64,000 nt of DNA from assembly GCA_019058315.1 (NCBI GenBank), contig JAHPZH010000003.1, positions 268,451-332,450 on the forward strand. Direction: 5' to 3'. The notes beneath the pieces are model-generated. The model was not told the DNA's origin. It saw only the letters and a list, made by a program, of their open reading frames with translations, and made no database searches. The position numbers and the translations under genes were made by a program. Positions 30,133 through 49,939 of the stretch are shown here, one piece after another (position 1 is the first letter of the stretch; each line of letters opens with the position of its first letter). This stretch comes from Candidatus Helarchaeota archaeon (lineage in GTDB: Archaea > Asgardarchaeota > Lokiarchaeia > Helarchaeales > RDOG01).

Positions 30133-30603
30133 ATGGCAAAGGCAAAAAAGGCAAAAAATCAGAATAAAAGTAAGAAAATAACTAAAAATCCTAAAAAACC
30201 ACCAAAAAGAAGGGGTCGGCCTCCAGGATCGGTAAAGACGAAGGGATTAGAGAGAGAAAGTATTCAAAATGTAATATTAGATAAAAATGAATCTTCATCC
30301 TATGAAAAAAATATTAGTAAAGATGATTATGATTCGATCTTAATAAAACAATTAAAAAGCAACAGAAAAGAGAAAGAAAAAGCTTTCAAGGATGAATATG
30401 AAGATGATAATGAAGAAGATGAAGATTCTGACGCATTTATTGAAGGCTACGATATAGAAATGCCAGAAGGGGAAGAGTTTGAAGAAGATATTATGAGTTT
30501 ACCTAAAAAAGCTAAGAAAAAGAGAAAAAAGAACTACTATGATGAATTTGGGATAGAAAGCGAATTTTATGATAGTGATTATAATATTGGTGACTATGAA
30601 TAA
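30133..30603 (+). CDS. Disordered protein with basic N-terminus, AT-hook motif and acidic C-terminus
   Basis: PKRRGRPPG core; Lys-rich start; D/E-rich tail. Confidence 0.7.
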   Translation: MAKAKKAKNQNKSKKITKNPKKPPKRRGRPPGSVKTKGLERESIQNVILDKNESSSYEKNISKDDYDSILIKQLKSNRKEKEKAFKDEYEDDNEEDEDSDAFIEGYDIEMPEGEEFEEDIMSLPKKAKKKRKKNYYDEFGIESEFYDSDYNIGDYE

Positions 30604-30730
30604 TTTATTACAAAATAAAAATTGTCATAAAGATTAGCATTAATTTTTTAATCCAATAATTTCATTATTAATTAAGACAAGAAACTTTTCTACATTTATT
30701 TTGATTATATTAATTAAAAAATTGATTAAA

Positions 30731-31156
30731 ATGTCCAATCCTGAAAATCCGGAAAATAAAGAGGATATGGAAGATGTTAAATCAATTGGATTTTTTCCCG
30801 AAGCAGAAATTCTGATTTTCCCAAATAGATTACTTGCAGAACACCATGTTGAGGAATTTTTAGAAAAAATAAAATCTGTAGAGGGAATTTCAAAAATTAT
30901 GTTAACAGGACCACGAATTTATGAGAATAGTTCTATTAAAATAGGATCCAAAACAATTCCCCTTAAAGTACAAGTCGGAAAGGTCATTATACAAATTGAA
31001 ACTGTTGATTTAATCAAAGATATTAGAGAAGTATGTGATAATTGTTTTAAATTTGGATATAGAATTGGTGTGGGGAGATACACAAAGTGGCGGGAAACCA
31101 CGATGGATTCCGTTAGAGGCTATTCTCTTGTAATCCGGAAAGATATGTTAGAGTGA
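30731..31156 (+). CDS. mcrD: Methyl-coenzyme M reductase operon protein D
   Basis: EILIFPNRLL...TGPR...IPLKVQVGKV...FGY...GRYTK..ET.MD matches McrD; adjacent to mcrC. ATG at 30731 preferred over TTG at 30701. Confidence 0.85.
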   Translation: MSNPENPENKEDMEDVKSIGFFPEAEILIFPNRLLAEHHVEEFLEKIKSVEGISKIMLTGPRIYENSSIKIGSKTIPLKVQVGKVIIQIETVDLIKDIREVCDNCFKFGYRIGVGRYTKWRETTMDSVRGYSLVIRKDMLE

Positions 31157-31165
31157 GTTGAATAT

Positions 31166-31819
31166 TTGGCCAGATTAAAAATTGGAAGGAAAACACAAGT
31201 TATCGACTGTAGAGAAACTGCAGGTTTAGGGCTTGGTGGAGGACTTGCCCAGAGAGATACTTTTTCTGAAGCCGAAGAACCAGATTTAATTGTGCTTTCA
31301 ATGGGGCCTAGTAATAGACATATCACAAAACCAGTTTGTGAAATTACTTACGGATTAAGAGAAGAGGGATTACAGACTTCTGTTATGGTTATGCGAGCAG
31401 GTGTGGGAGGTTCAGAAGATCGTCCATTAGCAGGGGGTGGAATTTCTGGAATTAGCCCACATGAAGAGAAGAAGATGCGTAAACATAAATTAGCAATAAT
31501 TCATTTAGGAAATGTCTTTAGACATTTTGTTTATAAAGCGCGTAATTATTTGAGAAATGTGGAAATTCCAGCAATTATTGTATGTCAAGCCCCAGTTGGA
31601 TTTGAAGATTTCGCTAAAGTCGGAGTTCTAACGGAAAAGTTCCATCCTGATGAATTTAATGTCCCCAAGATTAACCATACAAAAGGTAAAGTTGTGGATA
31701 TTGTAACTGGTGTAATTAGAGGGCAAACTTGTCCCCAATCAAAAATAAATGAAATTATAGAAAAAGTAAATTATTGGTTAAATGTAATAAAATTAGAAGA
31801 AAAAAAGAATAATAAATGA
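31166..31819 (+). CDS. mcrC: Methyl-coenzyme M reductase operon protein C
   Basis: IGRKTQVIDCRE..GLG.GGGLAQR, RHITKPVCEITYGLRE, HLGNV, VCQAPV.FEDFA and GVIRGQTCP. Confidence 0.95.
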   Translation: MARLKIGRKTQVIDCRETAGLGLGGGLAQRDTFSEAEEPDLIVLSMGPSNRHITKPVCEITYGLREEGLQTSVMVMRAGVGGSEDRPLAGGGISGISPHEEKKMRKHKLAIIHLGNVFRHFVYKARNYLRNVEIPAIIVCQAPVGFEDFAKVGVLTEKFHPDEFNVPKINHTKGKVVDIVTGVIRGQTCPQSKINEIIEKVNYWLNVIKLEEKKNNK

Positions 31820-39226: not shown

Positions 39227-40705
39227 TTGACTGAAGAAAGAATCATAACCATTCTCCAGCAAATTGTTGGAGAAGATAGGGCAACTGCTGATGATGCTGA
39301 GATGATCGCATACTCCAGAGACCAGCATTACATGTTTAATAAACCTATGATTCCAAATTACGTAGTAAAACCGATAAATAAAGGTCAAATAAAACAAATT
39401 TTAAGTCTAGCAAATCGCCATAGAATACCAATTGTACCTTTAGCACAAGGAGTTAACATCAGAGGATTGTGCATCCCAACAGAGGGAGGCATAATATTAG
39501 ATATGAGAAATATGAACCAGATAAAAGAAATAAACCTTGAAATGATGACAGCTACAATTGAGCCAGGAGTTTCTGTAGGACAATTAGTAGCGGCATGCAG
39601 AAAATTAGGAGTTAGACCTGCGATTCCAGGGTCCCCCGCAACAGTTAGTGCATTTGCGAATTATATGCTAAGAGGAGTCTATCATTCCAATCCCTTGGAT
39701 GGAATTGATCATGTACTTTGTATGGAGATTATGTTACCTACAGGTGAGACTATAAAAACTGGATCAAGTGCAATTACGACCTCCTATGGACCATATTGTA
39801 GATGGTTTGGACCTGACCTAACTGGTTTATTTCAAGGTGTTCCTGGAGCCTTTGGAATAATAGTTGAAATGACTGTTAAATTATATGATTTTCCAGAAGA
39901 ATCAAGATTTTTGGGTTATGGATTTGATACATGGGAAAAAGCAACTGAATTTGCTATGGAAGTCCAGCGTCGAGTTATCCCCAATTTGATGTGGCTTATT
40001 GATTGGTTAGCTCTCACAGTTGTAAGTGGAATGTTTAAAAGAAAGGACATAATGGAGAAATCCACTAAAGCATCGATGCCCCATTGTACTGTTCCTGTTT
40101 TAATTGAAGGTGAAAAAGACTTAGTTGATTTTAAGTTAAATCGGCTAAAACAAATCCTGGAAAAGGTCCCTCCCGACAGACAACCACTAACGGACATAGA
40201 TACTGCAATTCAACAACCTGAAAGTGGTGGTACAGGTCAAGGAATGAGCTCTGAAGAATTCCTCGGTGGTCGTAATGTCGCAGGAATGTTAAAAATGGGT
40301 TATTATTTTGCGTTAGCTTTTTTTCATCCCCTTAAGACAGGACCAGAGTTATTCAAAATTTTTAAGGATGTCGGTGAGGATAATGGATTTGATAGAGATA
40401 TTGTTTCGTTTGTTTCTACACCAACAGCTACAGGAGCGAACAATTGGTCAGGACAATGTACTTATTCAGAAGGAGAATTATTTGTGGACCAAACAGAACC
40501 AGGTATGATGGATAAATTACGGAAGTTTAGTACACAAAGTATCCAGAAAATCTTAGATGCAAAGTTGATATACTCTTGGTTTAGACCATATGCCCAAGTC
40601 CTTGAAATTACATTAGATAGGGCAGGCGCAACAGGACTTTTCTTAAGAAAGCTTAAAAACTTAATAGATCCGAACAATATCATGAACCCAGGAAAATTTC
40701 TATAG
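39227..40705 (+). CDS. FAD-binding oxidoreductase, GlcD/D-lactate dehydrogenase family
   Basis: GGIILDMRNMNQIKEIN, EPGV, GPDLTGLF.G..GAFGIIVE and C-terminal DPNNIMNPGK. Confidence 0.92.
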   Translation: MTEERIITILQQIVGEDRATADDAEMIAYSRDQHYMFNKPMIPNYVVKPINKGQIKQILSLANRHRIPIVPLAQGVNIRGLCIPTEGGIILDMRNMNQIKEINLEMMTATIEPGVSVGQLVAACRKLGVRPAIPGSPATVSAFANYMLRGVYHSNPLDGIDHVLCMEIMLPTGETIKTGSSAITTSYGPYCRWFGPDLTGLFQGVPGAFGIIVEMTVKLYDFPEESRFLGYGFDTWEKATEFAMEVQRRVIPNLMWLIDWLALTVVSGMFKRKDIMEKSTKASMPHCTVPVLIEGEKDLVDFKLNRLKQILEKVPPDRQPLTDIDTAIQQPESGGTGQGMSSEEFLGGRNVAGMLKMGYYFALAFFHPLKTGPELFKIFKDVGEDNGFDRDIVSFVSTPTATGANNWSGQCTYSEGELFVDQTEPGMMDKLRKFSTQSIQKILDAKLIYSWFRPYAQVLEITLDRAGATGLFLRKLKNLIDPNNIMNPGKFL

Positions 40706-40715
40706 GAGGAATATT

Positions 40716-41903
40716 ATGTCTCTTGATTTATTAGAAAAATATTCTAAAATTGTTTATTACTGTTCACACTGTCGATTATGCTCTATAGCAAACTACCATC
40801 TTTTAAAAGATTGGGTTCCTATTTGTCCCTCAGGCGAATATTTCAAATTTGAAAGTTATTTCTCCTCGGGAAGAATGGAATTAATACGTGGATTATTAGA
40901 AGGAGAACTCAAACGCACTAAAACTGAAACTATAATGAAAATAGCATTCGGCTGCCAAGTTTGTGGAGGTTGTTATACACAGTGCTCAGATCACACAGCC
41001 TTAGGAGAAACTCAGCAACAGGTGGAAACCTTTGAGGATTTAAGAACTGCACTTGTTGATATGTATGGAGCATTACCTAAACATCAAGAATTAGCTGATG
41101 ATACTACTAAGGACCATAATCCCTATAAGGATAGCAATAATAATCGTTTCAATTGGTTAGAGGGAAAAAATATTCCCGCAGGGTCAAAAACAATCTATTT
41201 TGCAGGTTGCACCGCCTCATTTCGGGAGCAAGAAATTGCTAAAGCTACTGTCAACCTGCTAGAAGCGGTAGGGCAAGATTTTTCTATTCTTGGACCAGAT
41301 GAATGGTGTTGTGGATCTCCACTTCTTAGAACAGGGCAGAGAAAAGTTGCGATGCCTCTCATTGAACATAATTATAATATATTAAAAGAAAGAGGGATTG
41401 AAAGAATAATAACAAGTTGTGCTGGCTGTTATCAGACCATTAAAAACGATTATCCCAAATTTTTAGGTAAGAAATTGGATATTAAAATTGTCCACTCTGT
41501 CCAATTTTTCCAAAATAAAATTAAAAGTGGAGAGTTGAAATTAAAAGGAAAAGATCTTAAAATTACTTATCATGACCCCTGCCATATTGCTAGACATGCA
41601 AACATTAGAAAAGCTCCACGTAAAGTAATAGAAGCCATACCTAATATAAAATTTGAAGAATTTCAACGGAATAAAAAGAATGCTTGGTGTTGCGGAGCAG
41701 GTGGTGGAGTTAAGAAAGCTTTTGGCGATTTTGCAAATTGGACAGCTAATCAACGAATACTAGAAGCGGATAAAATTAAAGATTTACAAGCTATCGTATC
41801 AACATGCCCTTTCTGTAAAAATAATTTAAAACAAGCTGTTGAAAGAATGGGTCGAAAATATAGAGTAATGGACTTAACTGAGTTATTGCAAGAGTGTATA
41901 TAA
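40716..41903 (+). CDS. HdrD/GlcF-like Fe-S protein with two CCG domains
   Basis: CSHCRLC...CP, CQVCGGCYTQC, YFAGC, WCCGSP, SCAGC, YHDPCH, WCCGAGGG and TCPFC. Confidence 0.92.
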   Translation: MSLDLLEKYSKIVYYCSHCRLCSIANYHLLKDWVPICPSGEYFKFESYFSSGRMELIRGLLEGELKRTKTETIMKIAFGCQVCGGCYTQCSDHTALGETQQQVETFEDLRTALVDMYGALPKHQELADDTTKDHNPYKDSNNNRFNWLEGKNIPAGSKTIYFAGCTASFREQEIAKATVNLLEAVGQDFSILGPDEWCCGSPLLRTGQRKVAMPLIEHNYNILKERGIERIITSCAGCYQTIKNDYPKFLGKKLDIKIVHSVQFFQNKIKSGELKLKGKDLKITYHDPCHIARHANIRKAPRKVIEAIPNIKFEEFQRNKKNAWCCGAGGGVKKAFGDFANWTANQRILEADKIKDLQAIVSTCPFCKNNLKQAVERMGRKYRVMDLTELLQECI

Positions 41904-43311: not shown

Positions 43312-44703
43312 ATGAAGTATAAAGATAAAATTGATTTATACGATGGAAGAAACAATTGCATAGCTTCAGACATTCCATTAGAAGCAATATCACCATTACA
43401 TAATCCATATATTAAAAAAGTGCTTAATTTTGTTAAACGCACTTCTATTATTAATTTGGGAAAGCTTCAGAATGTAATGAAAAAAGGTACAGTCGGTGTT
43501 ATGACGGCAGTTAAACAAGATGAATGTAAAGTTATGAACACATTAGATATACCCATAGTTAAAGATGCTCCAGAGATTGCTGAACGTATTAAGAAACTAA
43601 TTGAGGTCCCAAATTATAATGGGACTCCTGATGATACAGAAGTTTTTCTGTGTGGTAATAATGAAATTATGCTTGTTAAAATGCCAAAAGCTAGGATGGA
43701 TTTAGCTGCTAGTAGAGATGTAGTATATACTTTTCCTGGTCAAGCTCTAGCTCAAGTGCTATCAGAAATGTATGATATTAACCCAGAAACAAATCCAGAC
43801 CATTGTGGTCTTATAAAAACTGCATTGTATGGAAGATATCCCCAAACTGTTCAATTTGCACCAGGAAACGTTATGGGCGCTTTTTTAAACCCCCCACAGA
43901 CTCAAGAGGGGGTTGGAATCGGATATAGGTTAACAACAATAAATAATATTGTAGCATTGACAGATAAAATTACTTTAGACGCAGTAGCGCTATGTTCAAT
44001 TCTAGAACAGGGCTGCCAATTAGAAACTGGTAATGCCGCAGGTTGGTATGAACGTTACTGTTTGCTGGGTATGGCATATCAAGGACTTAACGCAAATAAT
44101 ATTGTTATGGATTTTGTAATAGAGAATAAATCAGGAACAGTTGGAGATGTTATTCGCTCACTTATGGAACGAGCTATTAATGATGGTATTATTAAACAAA
44201 AAGGAGAAAAATATCCAGATATCTTATTCTCGGGTTACAAACTATATTCAACTTCAGATCCTTCATTATGGAATGCATATAATTGCACAGGGTTGTTAGC
44301 TGCATCTATTATTAATGTAGGAGCAAGTCGTGCAGCACAGTGTGTATCCGCAGTATTAGGTGCATATCCCGATTTAATAGCTTTTGAATCAGGAGGTTTG
44401 CCAGATCCCGATTTCGGTCGTATTATGGGAACTGGACTCGGGTTTTGTTTCTATACACATTCAATTTATGGCGGAGCTGGACCTGGAGCTTTTTCTCTTG
44501 ATCACGTATTAGTCCGTCACACCTCTGGGTTCTTCACTCCATGTGTTGCTGCAGCTATGTGCTTGGATGCGGGAACCCAAGTTTTTAGCCCAGAAGTAAC
44601 AAGTGGAAGTATGTTTAAGATTAAAGAGGTAATTGATATCTTTAAAAATCCATTAAATAAAGTCGCCGAGGCGGCGGAGGAGATAAAATCTAAAATAAAG
44701 TAG
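43312..44703 (+). CDS. mcrB: Methyl/alkyl-coenzyme M reductase beta subunit
   Basis: YKDKIDLYD, PLEAISPLHNP, GRYPQT, AYQGLNANN, GLPDPDFGR, THSIYGGAGPG and CLDAGTQVFSPEVTSG; GAGG SD. Confidence 0.97.
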   Translation: MKYKDKIDLYDGRNNCIASDIPLEAISPLHNPYIKKVLNFVKRTSIINLGKLQNVMKKGTVGVMTAVKQDECKVMNTLDIPIVKDAPEIAERIKKLIEVPNYNGTPDDTEVFLCGNNEIMLVKMPKARMDLAASRDVVYTFPGQALAQVLSEMYDINPETNPDHCGLIKTALYGRYPQTVQFAPGNVMGAFLNPPQTQEGVGIGYRLTTINNIVALTDKITLDAVALCSILEQGCQLETGNAAGWYERYCLLGMAYQGLNANNIVMDFVIENKSGTVGDVIRSLMERAINDGIIKQKGEKYPDILFSGYKLYSTSDPSLWNAYNCTGLLAASIINVGASRAAQCVSAVLGAYPDLIAFESGGLPDPDFGRIMGTGLGFCFYTHSIYGGAGPGAFSLDHVLVRHTSGFFTPCVAAAMCLDAGTQVFSPEVTSGSMFKIKEVIDIFKNPLNKVAEAAEEIKSKIK

Positions 44704-44704
44704 G

Positions 44705-45514
44705 GTGATTATTATTCCTGAAGAAAAACCAAAAGATAAAATAAAGTATCAGAGACAATTTTATCCTGGAACGGAAAAAGTATCTGAACGCAGAAGAAAA
44801 ATCATGGATCCTAATCGTAGATTAGTTAAATTGCGTGATATTCCAGATGACGATATTATCCTTTTACTTGGACATAGAGCTCCAGGGGCTTTATATGCTA
44901 GTGTTCACCCTCCATTGGATGAGATTTTAGAACACGAAGACCCAATTAAGTCAATAGTAGAACCAACTCCTGGTGCAAGGGCTGGTGATCGAATGCGGTT
45001 TGTTCAATTTACAGATTCTTTCTGGAGACCTCCATTTGCACCTTGGTTGCGAGCTAGAACATATTTCACTCGGTTTAGGGGGCTGGATACAGTTATTTAT
45101 TCAGGGCGACAACTTTTAGAAATGCGTGAAAGAGACTTAGAAGCTACCACCAAACTCCTTATAGAAACAGAAGTTTTCGATCCCGCTCGGACTGCACTTC
45201 GAGGAATCACAGTTCATGGACATGCATTACGTTTAGACTCCGATGGATTGATGTTTGACGCACGGAGGAGATATATTTATGATAAAGACATAGACGAAGT
45301 TGTTTATCATAAAAATATGAATGCCGAAGTTCTAGATATCCCTGTACCTGTCGGTAGACCTATGTCAGATGAGGAACTACAAGAATATGACGTTACATAC
45401 CGTTGGGATACTACAGCATATAAAAGCCGAACAGAATTGCTCATGATAGTCACGCGAATAACAAGAATGCGCATCTTGGGTGGTTTTAAACCAGATTTAG
45501 TTGCAAATATGTAA
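44705..45514 (+). CDS. mcrG: Methyl/alkyl-coenzyme M reductase gamma subunit
   Basis: QFYPG, LGHRAPG..Y.SVHPPL, PTPGARAGDR.RFVQFTDS, SGRQ..E.RERDLE and RGITVHGHALRL..DGLMFD. Confidence 0.97.
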   Translation: MIIIPEEKPKDKIKYQRQFYPGTEKVSERRRKIMDPNRRLVKLRDIPDDDIILLLGHRAPGALYASVHPPLDEILEHEDPIKSIVEPTPGARAGDRMRFVQFTDSFWRPPFAPWLRARTYFTRFRGLDTVIYSGRQLLEMRERDLEATTKLLIETEVFDPARTALRGITVHGHALRLDSDGLMFDARRRYIYDKDIDEVVYHKNMNAEVLDIPVPVGRPMSDEELQEYDVTYRWDTTAYKSRTELLMIVTRITRMRILGGFKPDLVANM

Positions 45515-45551: not shown

Positions 45552-47957
45552 CTACTGAATTTCTTTTCGTTGTTTAGTGCTAGGAAATCCCTTTCGAAGC
45601 CATCCTATCATCCCACCGATTAGGTTTCGAACATCTTTAAAACCCGCTTGAGCTAATAGTCGAGCTGCCATCATCGATCTCATTCCAGAATGACATATTG
45701 TTACGATTTCTTTATCCTTAAATTCATTAAATTCTTCAATTTTATTCATTAATTCGCCCAGTGGAATTAATTTAGAACTTTTAATATGCCCTTCTGGACC
45801 GTAATATTCCTCTGGAGATCTTACATCTATAAGAAGGTCTGGCTTATCATCTGTTTCAAGACGTTCAAATAATTCATTTGGTTCTATATCTGATAAAGCT
45901 GGGGAATCAGGTCTTCTTAATTCTTTTCTAGAAATTTTGGGTAGTTTAACTGGTGCAATAACATCATCTTTCGAAATTTTACCTTTTTGTAATATTGCTA
46001 CTATTTTTCCCATACTTTTTTCGAGATTTAATAGTTTAATATTATCTGTTAATTTAACATATGCTTCTACACTTGATTTAAAACCTGGATCTGTTGCGAA
46101 AATTTTTAATTTCTTTTCACTTTCCTCAGGAAGTGTTTCAAGACCTTTTATTAGAGCATTCAATGGACCAGGACAGCTCAAACCACTAGCATCAATTTCA
46201 ATAAATTCATTACTTTCTTGAGATTTATCTTTGATAAATTCCTCCATAATTTCTTGAGGACTACCACATGCATTTATGATTTCCTCAGTTGTTGCCCTCG
46301 CCATTTCAAAAAGTCTAAATCCACCAGTTAAATTATAAACTTCTTTAAAGCCATTTAGTAATAACATTCTCGATGCCAAATAACTTCTAAAACCAGTTTC
46401 GCAAAACACATAGATTGGTTTATTCCTAGGAATTTCATCTAATCTTTTTCGTAATTCATCTACATGGATATTAATAGCGGCTTCTATAGGTCTTGTCTTA
46501 AATTCTGCTGGTGTTCTAACATCTAGAATAAAACCACCATTTTCTTTAATTTTTTCATAATCATGATAATGCCAAATTGGCATATCACCTTTAATAAAAT
46601 TTGAAGCTATAAAGCCAGCCATATTTATAGGATCCTTAGCCGAACTATAGGGTGGAGCATAAGATAATTCTAATTCTTCCAGATCGAAAACTGTTCCTCC
46701 CATTTTTATTATCGTTGAAATTATATCTATCCTTTTTTCAGCTCCAGAACCGCCAACAATTTGAGCACCTAAAATTTTTCCAGAAGACTTATTGAAGATT
46801 AATTTGAATGCTAATGGAACTGCACCTGGATAATAACCTGCATGATTATTAGGATGAAGAAATATTTTTTCATATTCATTTCCATTATTTTTTAATGTTT
46901 TTTCAGTTAAACCTACAAAAGCAGCAGTAAGATCGAAGATTTTAACAACAGAAGCACCTAATGCCCCATTATATTCTGAATCTCGACCAGCAATATTATT
47001 TGCAGCAATTCTTCCTTGCTTATTAGCAGGTCCTGCTAATGGAACCAGAGTAGGCTCATTTGTTTGAAGATTTAAAATTTGTACAGCATCTCCAACAGCA
47101 TAAATATGAGGATCTGACGTTTGCATTTGTTTATTGACTATTATATGTCCTCTAGGACTCATTTTGAGGTTTGAATCTTTAAGAAAAGCAGTTTCAGGTT
47201 TTATACCAATTGACATAATAATTAAATCAGTTTCGATTATTCTACCACTTCTAGTTTTAACATAAGGTCTATTTTTTTCAGTTCGTCCAAAAGAATCAAC
47301 CCCATCTTCTAATACCAAGCAAATTCCATTTAAAATTAATTCTTGATGGATAAATTGACACATTTCTTTGTCCATAGGAGGCATAACTTGGTCTAACATT
47401 TCAACTATTTTTACTTTCACTCCCATTTGACGTAAGTTCTCCGCAATCTCTAGACCAATAAATCCTCCTCCTATAACAACTACGTGTTCTGGTTTTTTAT
47501 TATCTACATAATTCCTAATAGCCACTGCATCAGGAATTGTTTTTAAGGTGAAAATCGGAACATCATCAATTCCGGGTAAATTTGGTCTTATTGCTCTAGC
47601 CCCTGGTGATAAAATAAGATAATCGTAGGATAGATCATACTCAGATTTATTTTTTAGATCTTTAATTTTAACTTGTTTATTATTTTGGTCTACTGAAATA
47701 GCTTCATGATTAATACGGACGTCAATATTATATCTATTGAGAAATCTTGAAATTGGTACTAATTCTAATGCCTTACGATCTTTGATATCACCACCTATAT
47801 AATAAGGCAGACCACAATTTGCAAATGATACATATGATCCTTTTTCAATCATTATTATATCAAAATCTTCATTAAGTCGGCGCAATCTAGCAGCAGCAGA
47901 TGCTCCACCTGCCACACCACCTATAATTACCACTTTTACCATTTTATCATTCCACAA
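45552..47957 (-). CDS. CoA-disulfide/persulfide reductase fused to rhodanese, TusA-like and a second rhodanese domain
   Basis: GGVAGGASAAARLRR, SFANCGLPY, GGGFIGLE, YAPPYSSAKDP; rhodanese loops FCETGFRS and ICHSGMRS; TusA motif IDASGLSCPGP...ATDPG. Confidence 0.93.
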   Translation of the reverse strand: MWNDKMVKVVIIGGVAGGASAAARLRRLNEDFDIIMIEKGSYVSFANCGLPYYIGGDIKDRKALELVPISRFLNRYNIDVRINHEAISVDQNNKQVKIKDLKNKSEYDLSYDYLILSPGARAIRPNLPGIDDVPIFTLKTIPDAVAIRNYVDNKKPEHVVVIGGGFIGLEIAENLRQMGVKVKIVEMLDQVMPPMDKEMCQFIHQELILNGICLVLEDGVDSFGRTEKNRPYVKTRSGRIIETDLIIMSIGIKPETAFLKDSNLKMSPRGHIIVNKQMQTSDPHIYAVGDAVQILNLQTNEPTLVPLAGPANKQGRIAANNIAGRDSEYNGALGASVVKIFDLTAAFVGLTEKTLKNNGNEYEKIFLHPNNHAGYYPGAVPLAFKLIFNKSSGKILGAQIVGGSGAEKRIDIISTIIKMGGTVFDLEELELSYAPPYSSAKDPINMAGFIASNFIKGDMPIWHYHDYEKIKENGGFILDVRTPAEFKTRPIEAAINIHVDELRKRLDEIPRNKPIYVFCETGFRSYLASRMLLLNGFKEVYNLTGGFRLFEMARATTEEIINACGSPQEIMEEFIKDKSQESNEFIEIDASGLSCPGPLNALIKGLETLPEESEKKLKIFATDPGFKSSVEAYVKLTDNIKLLNLEKSMGKIVAILQKGKISKDDVIAPVKLPKISRKELRRPDSPALSDIEPNELFERLETDDKPDLLIDVRSPEEYYGPEGHIKSSKLIPLGELMNKIEEFNEFKDKEIVTICHSGMRSMMAARLLAQAGFKDVRNLIGGMIGWLRKGFPSTKQRKEIQ

Positions 47958-48118: not shown

Positions 48119-49939
48119 TTAGTGTGCTGGAACTATTAAATCACGTTCTCCAGCAGGTTTGAATTGTCTCAAGCATGCTTTTGCTAATGAAACTCGCGGA
48201 TTCTTAAAATCAAAGATTAAATCACGATCTGCGAATGCTACTTTTATAACTGGACTTACTGCATATGCTCTACCTCTACCTTGAGCCGCGGCCATCACAG
48301 CAGCAATTTGACCAGCTGAATGTCCCGCGGTATATGATCGAACCGGAAAATTCGGACCAGCAAATTCAAGAAGCCCACCTTCATCCATTCGGAAAGAACA
48401 TGAATATGGAAGTCCTACATGATCTTGAACTTCTTGTCCTGCCCAACCAGTTCTTACCCAACCCTCTTTCATCAACATTCCAATTGCATAATTCTGACCC
48501 TGAACACCAATTATTGGTGACCCTGTCATCATTGCAACTCCAGCTCCACCCAAAGCACCTATTACGGAAATTCGGTGAGCTCCACCCCAATGGAACTCCA
48601 TAAGAGATGGATATTTCTCATATTGTTCCATAGCTGCTTGAATCAACATGTCTATCATGAATTTCACTCTTTCCCATTTTGGAGGGATCCTAGGAATCTT
48701 AAACATAGAACGATTTTGTACCTCTGTAAATGATTCAAGCAAATCTTCCATAACATTACCGCAATATGCCCCTGCTGCCACAGCAGTTGAGAAACCTAAT
48801 CCACCAGACATATAAAATCCGTAATTCAACAATTCGGTCATAACAGCAGCTATAATGCCTAAACCCTTTGACATTTCGCGTTGTCTAGTTTTTGCATCAT
48901 CTAAATCTTCTTGTACCACTTCCCAATAAGCTCTAGCAGGCAACATCGCATCCGCTTGTTGGATATCTGCTAAAAAACCGTATGAGATTCCAGTGGGTTC
49001 ATTTTGTCCACGAGCTCTACTGAACCAAGTACGTTCACCCATATTTATAAGGCATGCAGATTTAGCAGCATATGCAATATCAGATATGATACTTTCACCT
49101 GTGAGCCTATAAGAGGATATAAATGACATCGAAGATTGCATGGCTGCCCATCTATAAACAACAGCACCATCAGCCATACGAACTGCAATTGTAGGTATAC
49201 GGACAGCTATGTATATTGTATCCCCAATATCACGTTTTAACATCTCAGCTTTAGTTGGATGAAACTCTTGATCAATATTAATGACAAATCTTCTATCTAT
49301 ATTGTCCACGAAATCGTCATTGCCAGTAATAACCTTAGCATGTGCATCATAGGTTAATCCAGGGTGAATTTCAGCCATATGTTCTTGAGCCACCGCACCT
49401 CCAGCTACTGTGTGTTGTAATGTTTCCAGATAAAGATTTACTGTTTCAGGTGTGATTTCCTTACCTGCTCTTACTTGTAAAACTCGATGTGGGATATCTA
49501 AATTCAAAATAACTGTACGTTTAATATCGTCAAGTAATTGCTGAATTGCAGCATTATTAACATGATGTAAATCGTCATAATCTACTATCACATCAGTCCC
49601 GCTTATAATATATGGCTCTAAAGCCCTCTGTCCTAGTGGAATACCGACTGCTCTGTTGTAAGCAGGTATTCCTCTTTCCTTTGCTATTTTCTTTCCCCAT
49701 TCGGAAAATTCTTTCTTACGCCCACTTTGACGAATTCCACCACGATGATACATTAGAGGGTCCATAGTTGATAATGGATGGATTCCATAAATTTTTTCCA
49801 TAGTTTTATAGATTAAACGGTCTTCCTCATTAGGAAGGAACTTCTGTGCCAACTTAGATAAATTATATTTATATTCTGTCTCTTTTGCAATCCTTTTTTT
49901 TCCAAATGCAAGATCTTTTCTTTTGGCCAAAAAAATCAC
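48119..49939 (-). CDS. mcrA: Alkyl/methyl-coenzyme M reductase alpha subunit (divergent, Acr-type)
   Basis: RGIPAYN, DDLHHVNNAAIQQ..DDIKRT, GKEITPETVNLYLE, GGAVAQEHMAE, RWAAMQ, RARGQNEP, YMSGGLGF, KVAFAD and FKPAGERDLIVPAH. The true start may be TTG at 49930. Confidence 0.97.
   Translation of the reverse strand: MIFLAKRKDLAFGKKRIAKETEYKYNLSKLAQKFLPNEEDRLIYKTMEKIYGIHPLSTMDPLMYHRGGIRQSGRKKEFSEWGKKIAKERGIPAYNRAVGIPLGQRALEPYIISGTDVIVDYDDLHHVNNAAIQQLLDDIKRTVILNLDIPHRVLQVRAGKEITPETVNLYLETLQHTVAGGAVAQEHMAEIHPGLTYDAHAKVITGNDDFVDNIDRRFVINIDQEFHPTKAEMLKRDIGDTIYIAVRIPTIAVRMADGAVVYRWAAMQSSMSFISSYRLTGESIISDIAYAAKSACLINMGERTWFSRARGQNEPTGISYGFLADIQQADAMLPARAYWEVVQEDLDDAKTRQREMSKGLGIIAAVMTELLNYGFYMSGGLGFSTAVAAGAYCGNVMEDLLESFTEVQNRSMFKIPRIPPKWERVKFMIDMLIQAAMEQYEKYPSLMEFHWGGAHRISVIGALGGAGVAMMTGSPIIGVQGQNYAIGMLMKEGWVRTGWAGQEVQDHVGLPYSCSFRMDEGGLLEFAGPNFPVRSYTAGHSAGQIAAVMAAAQGRGRAYAVSPVIKVAFADRDLIFDFKNPRVSLAKACLRQFKPAGERDLIVPAH

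Follow-up and report, generated by a model that had tools for sequence, protein, structure and literature searches.

A probable multi-carbon alkyl-coenzyme M reductase alpha subunit in a Helarchaeota genome, with active-site substitutions common to its clade

Alkyl-coenzyme M reductases (ACRs) are, to our knowledge, the only known archaeal route of anaerobic multi-carbon alkane activation, and we know of no ACR for alkanes of three or more carbons (C3+) with a solved structure or an in vitro assay. Described relatives include the McrA of Hel_GB_A (PMC6478937), and Seitz et al. (2019) noted that Helarchaeota McrA is similar in its active-site residues to the Bathyarchaeota and Syntrophoarchaeum proteins (PMC6478937). 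Enrichment cultures of Syntropharchaeia and Ca. Alkanophaga lineages form alkyl-coenzyme M (alkyl-CoM), and cultures using related ACRs were found to contain butyl-, propyl- and long-chain alkyl-CoM (PMC9081873, PMC10322722). The ethyl-coenzyme M reductase (ECR) of Ca. Ethanoperedens thermophilum is distinguished by ethanotroph-specific insertions forming a 33 Å tunnel, dimethyl-F430, seven modified residues and few coenzyme-site substitutions (PMC9118554, PMC9081873). Here we compare with these systems an acrA/mcrA-like gene at 48119..49939 on the minus strand of a 64,000-nucleotide stretch (hereafter, the window) from a Candidatus Helarchaeota archaeon (assembly GCA_019058315.1, contig JAHPZH010000003.1, positions 268,451 to 332,450). 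The genome holding the window has 5.79 Mb in 12 contigs, about 30% GC, and is 94% complete.

The gene encodes 606 amino acids from a GTG start, although translation possibly begins slightly further downstream, by a few codons (relatives have 596–603 residues). Pfam domain MCR_alpha_N matched with 339 bits and MCR_alpha with just 68 bits, and the best PDB match was 1e6v_A, a chain from methyl-coenzyme M reductase (MCR), with 495 bits. Cognate partner genes lie on the plus strand: an acrB/mcrB-like gene at 43312..44703 (463 aa; MCR_beta_N and MCR_beta, 304 and 135 bits) and an acrG/mcrG-like gene at 44705..45514 (269 aa; MCR_gamma, 320 bits). The window thus holds the MCR domain architecture together with the beta and gamma genes expected of an ACR. 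In a quick IQ-TREE phylogeny with midpoint rooting, the window protein fell into a Helarchaeota/Hodarchaeota group, apart from canonical MCR, with SH-aLRT values of 97–100 on the relevant splits; the ACR clade in this tree includes Syntropharchaeia and Ca. Alkanophaga sequences. The nearest homologues were a JGI protein (90% identity), Ca. Helarchaeota (73%) and Hodarchaeota (67%), followed by Bathyarchaeota BA2 (56%) and BA1 (55%), Syntropharchaeia (51%), Ca. Alkanophaga liquidiphilum (49%) and canonical McrA (about 44%). Genes resembling mcrA were present in all seven genomes of the order and in none of the 24 genomes searched in the rest of the class. We consider it very probable that the open reading frame (ORF) encodes the alpha subunit of an ACR of the Helarchaeota/Bathyarchaeota/Syntrophoarchaeum type, which would perform ordinary multi-carbon alkane activation with the disulfide of coenzyme M (CoM) and coenzyme B (CoB), CoM-S-S-CoB.

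Residues of the alpha subunit were mapped by HMMER pairwise alignments to 1e6v, 5a8w, 5a8r and 5n28 and by MAFFT alignments of 20 and 125 sequences. Positions follow M. marburgensis numbering, which was set via invariant motifs (published positions) and Methanobacterium reference offsets, not from the M. marburgensis MCR I sequence itself. The four HMMER and two MAFFT alignments agreed on the mapping, and the substitutions fell between invariant anchors, with the coordinates of the substituted motifs all inside or adjoining 48300–49080. On the minus strand, the AVAQEHM loop (49376..49396) keeps Gln185, the equivalent of Gln147 and the axial ligand of F430. The stretch SYRL-TGES (49091..49114) has a one-residue deletion in loop 239–246, seen as a gap in all four HMMER alignments. 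YAAKSA (49055..49072) keeps Lys256 and replaces His257 by Ser; FSRARG (49007..49024) replaces Arg270 by Ser and keeps Arg271; and NEPTG (48989..49003) departs from an elsewhere invariant NEPGG by Gly316Thr, which corresponds to M. marburgensis position 279 or thereabouts. This Gly was found in 39/39 other aligned McrA, and the Thr, unique to the window gene, was confirmed by contigs of the source sample. An insertion of about 20 residues relative to canonical McrA lies within 48842..48961 (alignment block 283–345), directly before the YMSGG loop; it is present in all ACR-type rows and in none of the canonical rows, and is helical in the AlphaFold2 (AF2) model. The motif GGLGFSTAVAAGAY (48764..48805) retains Phe330 and lacks Tyr333 in a loop longer by one residue; since no Tyr occurs anywhere between Phe330 and Tyr338, Tyr333 is absent under any gap placement. 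HWGGAHR (48572..48592) shows Phe396Trp, Ser399Ala and Gln400His. In TGWAGQEVQDHVG (48413..48451), Phe443Trp, Tyr444Ala, Tyr446Gln and Cys452Val flank the retained Gly445 and Asp450, and in FAGPNFPVRSYTAGH (48320..48364), Met480Tyr, Asn481Thr and Val482Ala precede the retained His484. Short-read contigs from the probable source sample showed zero differences over the region, and the substitutions are therefore not assembly errors. A sequence-only reading of this DNA had listed the alpha substitutions by eye and proposed the loss of the Tyr333, His257 and Arg270 equivalents; every listed substitution was recovered at its coordinates, and the alignments with characterised MCRs put no Tyr, His or Arg at 333, 257 or 270, respectively.

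Residue frequencies were tallied in the 125-sequence alignment over 48 ACR-type McrA (22 Helarchaeota/Hodarchaeota, 12 Bathyarchaeota-like and 14 Syntropharchaeia/Alkanophaga-like) and 63 canonical McrA. The axial Gln was universal (48/48 and 63/63), and Arg271 was kept in 48/48 ACR-type sequences. Tyr333 and Arg270 were absent from 48/48 ACR-type sequences and present in 61/63 and 62/63 canonical sequences, respectively. All 48 ACR-type sequences had Trp at 396 (Phe in 61/63 canonical), Gln at 446 (Tyr in 46 and Phe in 15 of the 63 canonical), Tyr or Phe at 480 (Met in 60/63) and Thr or Ser at 481 (Asn in 61/63). Cys452 was lost in 46/48 and kept in 59/63 canonical sequences. Position 400, Gln in 61/63 canonical sequences, was His in 37/48 ACR-type sequences and Ile, Leu or Val in the rest; His400 was found in 22/22 Helarchaeota/Hodarchaeota and 11/12 Bathyarchaeota-like sequences. 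The deletion in loop 239–246 and the insertion before YMSGG occurred in every ACR row, and changes at 400, 443, 444, 446, 452, 480, 481 and 482 recurred across ACR groups. Because the same residues appear in all or nearly all of the ACR-type homologues at positions conserved in 59–63 of the 63 canonical MCRs (446 excepted), the pattern is not due to chance. The window protein carries the whole ACR signature (no Tyr333 or Arg270, Trp396, Gln446, Tyr/Phe480, Thr/Ser481, the loop deletion and the insertion) and departs from canonical MCR at Tyr333, Phe443, Tyr444, Asn481, Val482 and Arg270, positions conserved in 59–62 of the 63 canonical sequences. Position 257 behaved differently, with Ser in 21/22 Helarchaeota/Hodarchaeota and His in 26/26 members of the other two ACR groups and in 63/63 canonical sequences.

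As judged from these alignments, the remodelled active site is a clade signature that is already published and not peculiar to the window gene, and among the listed substitutions only His257Ser is confined to the Asgard subclade. The implication of the sequence-only reading that the gene is unusually remodelled did not hold up; Seitz et al. (2019; PMC6478937) had already remarked on the same state in Helarchaeota. Lemaire and Wagner (2022) likewise described replacement of position 400 by Ile, His or Glu and discussed position 480 (PMC9118554). Their remark on 'drastic substitutions' refers to a different, more divergent Helarchaeota/Lokiarchaeota group (PMC9118554), represented in our alignment by P0047, P0053 and P0059, some with a Leu axial ligand. 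Striking as it is, the remodelling is what an already described enzyme clade normally shows and no new discovery in the window. The present analysis makes modest additions, namely that His257Ser is Asgard-specific, that the modification enzymes are missing, that one genome holds three ACR sets, that the locus is split and that SCP2-like neighbours occur. A map that separates clade-wide changes from the Asgard-specific one offers positions for structural and heterologous-expression work.

The comparison with individual systems followed the same lines. In the species-genome scan, Hel_GB_A McrA (PMC6478937) was 73% identical to the window protein over its full length, with near-identical motifs (AAKSA, SRAR, GGLGFST(G/A)VAAGAY, HWGGAHR, TGWAGQE, SYTAGH and AVAQEHM) and the same beta FYTHSIYGG and gamma YSGR. 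The two differ at position 333 (Ala in the window protein, Gly in Hel_GB_A) and in NEPTG, found in the window protein only. They also differ in gene order, with mcrBGA forming a simple operon and a 171-aa ORF behind it in Hel_GB_A and, in the window, an inverted mcrA split from mcrBG by a gene for a CoA-disulfide-reductase (CoADR)–rhodanese–TusA protein, and in the three ACR sets of the window genome. The ACRs of Syntropharchaeia (Ca. Syntrophoarchaeum-type) and Ca. Alkanophaga, about 49–51% identical, share with the window protein the loss of Tyr333 and Arg270, Trp396, Ala399, Gly/Ala/Ser444, Gln446, Tyr480, Thr481, the one-residue deletion in loop 239–246 and the insertion of about 20 residues. 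In contrast to the window protein, they keep His257 (14/14), carry Leu/Ile/Val (10/14) or His (4/14) at 400, often have Arg256 and vary at 450. The divergent MCRs of Bathyarchaeota BA1 and BA2 (Evans et al. 2015, as cited in PMC9081873) are 55–56% identical, and the Bathyarchaeota-like group clustered with one Asgard subgroup in the quick tree; His400, Trp396, Trp443, Ala444 and Gln446 are common to both, whereas the Bathyarchaeota-like sequences keep His257 and have Gln270, Asn332 and mostly Phe480/Ser481. ECR (PDB 7b1s), the one non-methane ACR with a solved structure, has the same fold as the AF2 model of the window protein (TM 0.78/0.80) and is of the same three-subunit type, but scored lower in sequence than canonical MCR did (370 versus 495 bits), and its axial ligand is Met (PMC9118554, PMC9081873) in place of the Gln of the window protein. 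Canonical MCR (M. marburgensis MCR I, 1mro/5a0y), about 42–45% identical and of the same fold, shares with the window set the axial Gln, Arg225, Lys256, Arg271, Phe330, Gly445, Asp450, beta-Tyr367 and gamma-Arg120; the window protein is without its Tyr333, Arg270, His257, Phe396, Gln400, Phe443, Tyr444, Cys452, Met480, Asn481 and Val482.

The partner subunits retain most of the mapped sites. In beta, alignment to 5a8w_B located the motif GFCFYTHSIYGG at 44440–44475; Phe361, His364, Ser365, Ile366, Tyr367 (HSIYGG) and His379 are kept, Phe362 is replaced by Tyr, and the core FYTHSIYGG recurs in Hel_GB_A and both paralogues. In gamma, YSGRQ lies at 45098–45112 (aligned to 1e6v_C; ungapped range against 3pot_C), with Ser118, Gly119, Arg120, His156 and His158 kept and Leu117 replaced by Tyr. 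The cofactor anchors kept are alpha Gln147, Arg225, Lys256, Arg271, Phe330 and Gly445, then beta Phe361/His364/Tyr367 and gamma Arg120 (reportedly described by Ermler 1997), and also beta His379 with gamma His156/His158. The retention of the axial Gln (AQEHM) and of beta-Tyr367 asserted in the sequence-only reading is thus borne out. Use of F430 is further indicated by a gene for the F430 biosynthesis protein CfbD in the genome (495 bits), alongside the kept Gln185. Most likely, the alpha, beta and gamma subunits would form an alpha2beta2gamma2 enzyme in which Ni-F430 is ligated from below by the retained Gln, and which would convert CoM-S-S-CoB and a multi-carbon alkane into alkyl-S-CoM and HS-CoB. 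An ordinary ACR reaction is suggested because the axial Gln, gamma-Arg120 (the anchor of the CoM sulfonate) and three of the five mapped residues at the CoB end (Arg225, Lys256 and beta-His379) are kept.

Several observations weigh against this assignment. The mcrA gene is detached from mcrBG and lies on the opposite strand, and two CoB-side residues (His257 and Arg270) are missing. The PDB copy searched held no C3+ ACR structure, just ECR 7b1s, and the literature found contains neither an assayed enzyme of the Helarchaeota/Hodarchaeota subclade nor a Helarchaeota culture; any role given to a single substitution is consequently conjectural. A literature search for a cryo-EM structure of a C3+ ACR gave nothing relevant. 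ComA was not found in the genome, but the same search also draws a blank in M. acetivorans, whose CoM is made by a different route, and is uninformative on CoM supply. The AF2 monomer has the MCR alpha fold (pTM 0.83; TM 0.80/0.88 to 1mro), but its confidence is low at just the two loops, those of the axial Gln and of Gly445, that need the partner subunits and F430.

The two missing CoB-side residues bear on whether the Asgard-clade enzyme, having lost His257 and Arg270 near the threonine-phosphate end of CoB, binds the second thiol differently or uses a CoB variant, as the sequence-only reading had suggested in the form of a modified thiol cofactor. The confinement of His257Ser to Helarchaeota/Hodarchaeota (21/22), which adds to the absence of Arg270 throughout the clade, would fit such a change, and altered coenzymes were raised for divergent Asgard ACRs by Lemaire and Wagner (2022; PMC9118554), who were, however, dealing with another group of greater divergence. 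A further hint is the CoADR/rhodanese/TusA/rhodanese fusion gene between mcrG and mcrA (45552–47957, minus strand, 801 aa), which stands beside mcrA in the 90% relative too. However, Arg225, Lys256, Arg271 and beta-His379 are kept, as is gamma-Arg120, and Arg270 is missing from all 48 ACR-type sequences, including the Syntropharchaeia/Alkanophaga-type ACRs, for which the literature found suggests no other thiol. As the alignment reads, a basic residue at 266 (GERTW) in the clade could substitute for the lost anchor. The fusion gene, moreover, is not beside the ACR genes in Hel_GB_A. We found no positive evidence for a modified cofactor and regard a changed second thiol as unlikely. As to the fusion gene itself, the 90% relative has an extra 320-aa ORF between it and mcrA (loci L007 and L008), its product shows 74% identity between these genomes, and the gene is absent from the Hel_GB_A-type ACR locus.

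Post-translational modification also appears to differ from canonical MCR. The canonical pattern was not found: His257, Gln400 and Cys452 are replaced, in agreement with the loss of three modification sites claimed earlier, and the loss extends to the modifying enzymes. In the 94%-complete genome, Mmp10 was not found (just weak radical-SAM matches scoring 31 bits, where the cut-off is 350), nor were YcaO and TfuA. Because no gene for any of the three was found, Arg271 and Gly445, although retained, probably carry no modification either. In none of the seven ACR-bearing genomes of the order was YcaO (methanogenesis marker 1) found. One weak YcaO match occurred in a genome of the class without ACR. 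Deobald et al. (2018) reported mm10 to be absent in Bathyarchaeota (PMC5943407); for the distribution of YcaO and TfuA in ACR-bearing archaea, our literature search gave no statement. The missing Mmp10, YcaO and TfuA suggest that an ACR might be produced in a foreign host even if the customary modifying enzymes are not supplied, a practical point for expression.

The consequences for the substrate pocket are less direct. The sequence-only reading had proposed an enlarged pocket for multi-carbon substrates; the substrate class gains indirect support from placement in the ACR clade, while the enlargement does not, since Phe396Trp, Phe443Trp and Met480Tyr are bulkier. Side chains are smaller at 333, 444, 446, 481 and 482 and larger at 396, 443 and 480, so that the pocket may be reshaped. 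In AlphaFold models of C3+ ACRs, Lemaire and Wagner (2022) traced an open cleft to the deletion in loop 239–246 (PMC9118554). The gained Tyr residues (alpha-480, beta-362 and gamma-117) may stand in for the lost Tyr hydroxyls, and Arg266 for Arg270. The alkane chain length is not readable from sequence.

The detached mcrA could also be a decaying or inactive paralogue whose substitutions reflect relaxed constraint. Its separation from mcrBG and its inversion would agree with decay, as would 36 derived residues (relative to outgroups) in the window lineage against 7 in the 90% identical orthologue (L007), including the Gly to Thr change in the invariant NEPGG. The reading frame is nevertheless intact, and the proportion of nonsynonymous differences (pN) from the orthologue is 0.076. 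The synonymous proportion (pS, about 0.75) is saturated, which makes a dN/dS ratio unusable, so that constraint was judged from pN and by comparison with the adjacent genes. The flanking genes are 66–74% identical to those of the orthologue's locus; with 90% identity and low pN, mcrA is by far the most constrained gene there. Only 2–3 deviations fell in columns conserved at 90% or more, no more than in control sequences, and the listed substitutions are common to the 48 homologues. In an independent 2025 sediment metagenome, a 1988-nt contig spans the whole gene with 36 differences (a 98% identical copy), and nine of the ten in-gene differences listed were at third codon positions. Given pN, the contrast with the neighbours, the third-position variants and the conserved columns, we rejected pseudogenisation or relaxed selection, which we find hardly credible. 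Purifying selection on mcrA is strong.

Two wetland RNA libraries yielded contigs, 93–97% identical, that lie on mcrA, mcrB and mcrG, a weak hint of expression in relatives and no proof of transcription; none covered the CoADR gene, which is no evidence in either direction. The wetland origin of these contigs, not hydrocarbon seeps, would suit an enzyme that chiefly catalyses reduction, making alkane from alkyl-CoM, or that acts on some substrate other than an alkane, instead of oxidising alkanes. MCR-type reactions are reversible, and back flux in butane oxidation has been read as support for archaeal alkanogenesis (PMC11543930). On the other side, no sequence feature tells the direction, the RNA contigs come from relatives and do not prove transcription, and the genome contains CdhC and MtrH, which fit the oxidative scheme proposed for Helarchaeota (PMC6478937). 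A mainly reductive or non-alkane role thus seems very unlikely to us, and oxidative alkane activation by an ordinary ACR is still favoured.

The window's gene set is one of three complete, divergent ACR sets in this single Asgard genome, the others lying on contigs C3 (195535–200096; mcrBGA followed by a 168-aa ORF) and C5 (376414–382687; mcrA, a double-ABC ATPase, a 165-aa ORF, mcrB and mcrG). Pairwise identities among the three sets were 61–66% for alpha, 53–58% for beta and 69–70% for gamma, and the three alphas differ at positions 270, 320, 328, 333 and 480. The C3 and C5 alphas are 96–97% identical to NCBI proteins labelled Hodarchaeota.

A 165–171-aa ORF without a Pfam match stands directly after mcrA at L019:5491-5997 (C3) and L004:9798-10313 (Hel_GB_A-type contig), and after the A2-like ATPase at L018:4999-5496 (C5). 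The C3 and C5 copies are 52% identical. An atlas feature search linked these ORFs to SCP2-like clusters of Helarchaeota/Promethearchaeota (scores 0.94 and 0.89), making them candidate hydrophobic-ligand carriers beside ACRs. No SCP2-like ORF adjoins the window's own ACR set, and an ORF upstream of mcrD (30133-30603), considered as a further SCP2-like gene, proved unrelated to those of the other two sets. A broader proposal can be built from these elements, namely that Helarchaeota/Hodarchaeota ACRs are a modification-free MCR variant, three sites being replaced and no Mmp10, YcaO or TfuA found, that would also hold the thiol coenzymes differently, His257 and Arg270 both being lost. The hydroxyls would have moved from alpha-Tyr333/Tyr444 to alpha-Tyr480, beta-Tyr362 and gamma-Tyr117, the three sets would be tuned to different alkane lengths, and SCP2-like proteins would serve as alkane carriers. 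Taken as a whole, this proposal strikes us as rather doubtful, and an ordinary ACR with the clade's active site is preferred.

In the window, mcrB and mcrG (plus strand) converge on mcrA (minus strand) at a distance of 2.6 kb between the beta/gamma genes and mcrA. An mcrD-like gene (30701-31156, plus strand; MCR_D, 83.5 bits) and an mcrC-like gene (31166-31819, plus strand; MCR_C, 31.1 bits) lie 11.5 kb from mcrB (30701..31819 for the pair). At 39227-41903 on the plus strand, the gene for a GlcD-like FAD-binding oxidase (492 aa) comes first and that for a CCG-domain/4Fe-4S protein (HdrD-like, 395 aa) second. This pair sits 1.4 kb upstream of mcrB and is possibly a disulfide-reductase module near the ACR genes. 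The double-ABC ATPase of the C5 set (533 aa) resembles MCR component A2, and a conserved 384–388-aa ORF without a Pfam match precedes both the C3 and the C5 set.

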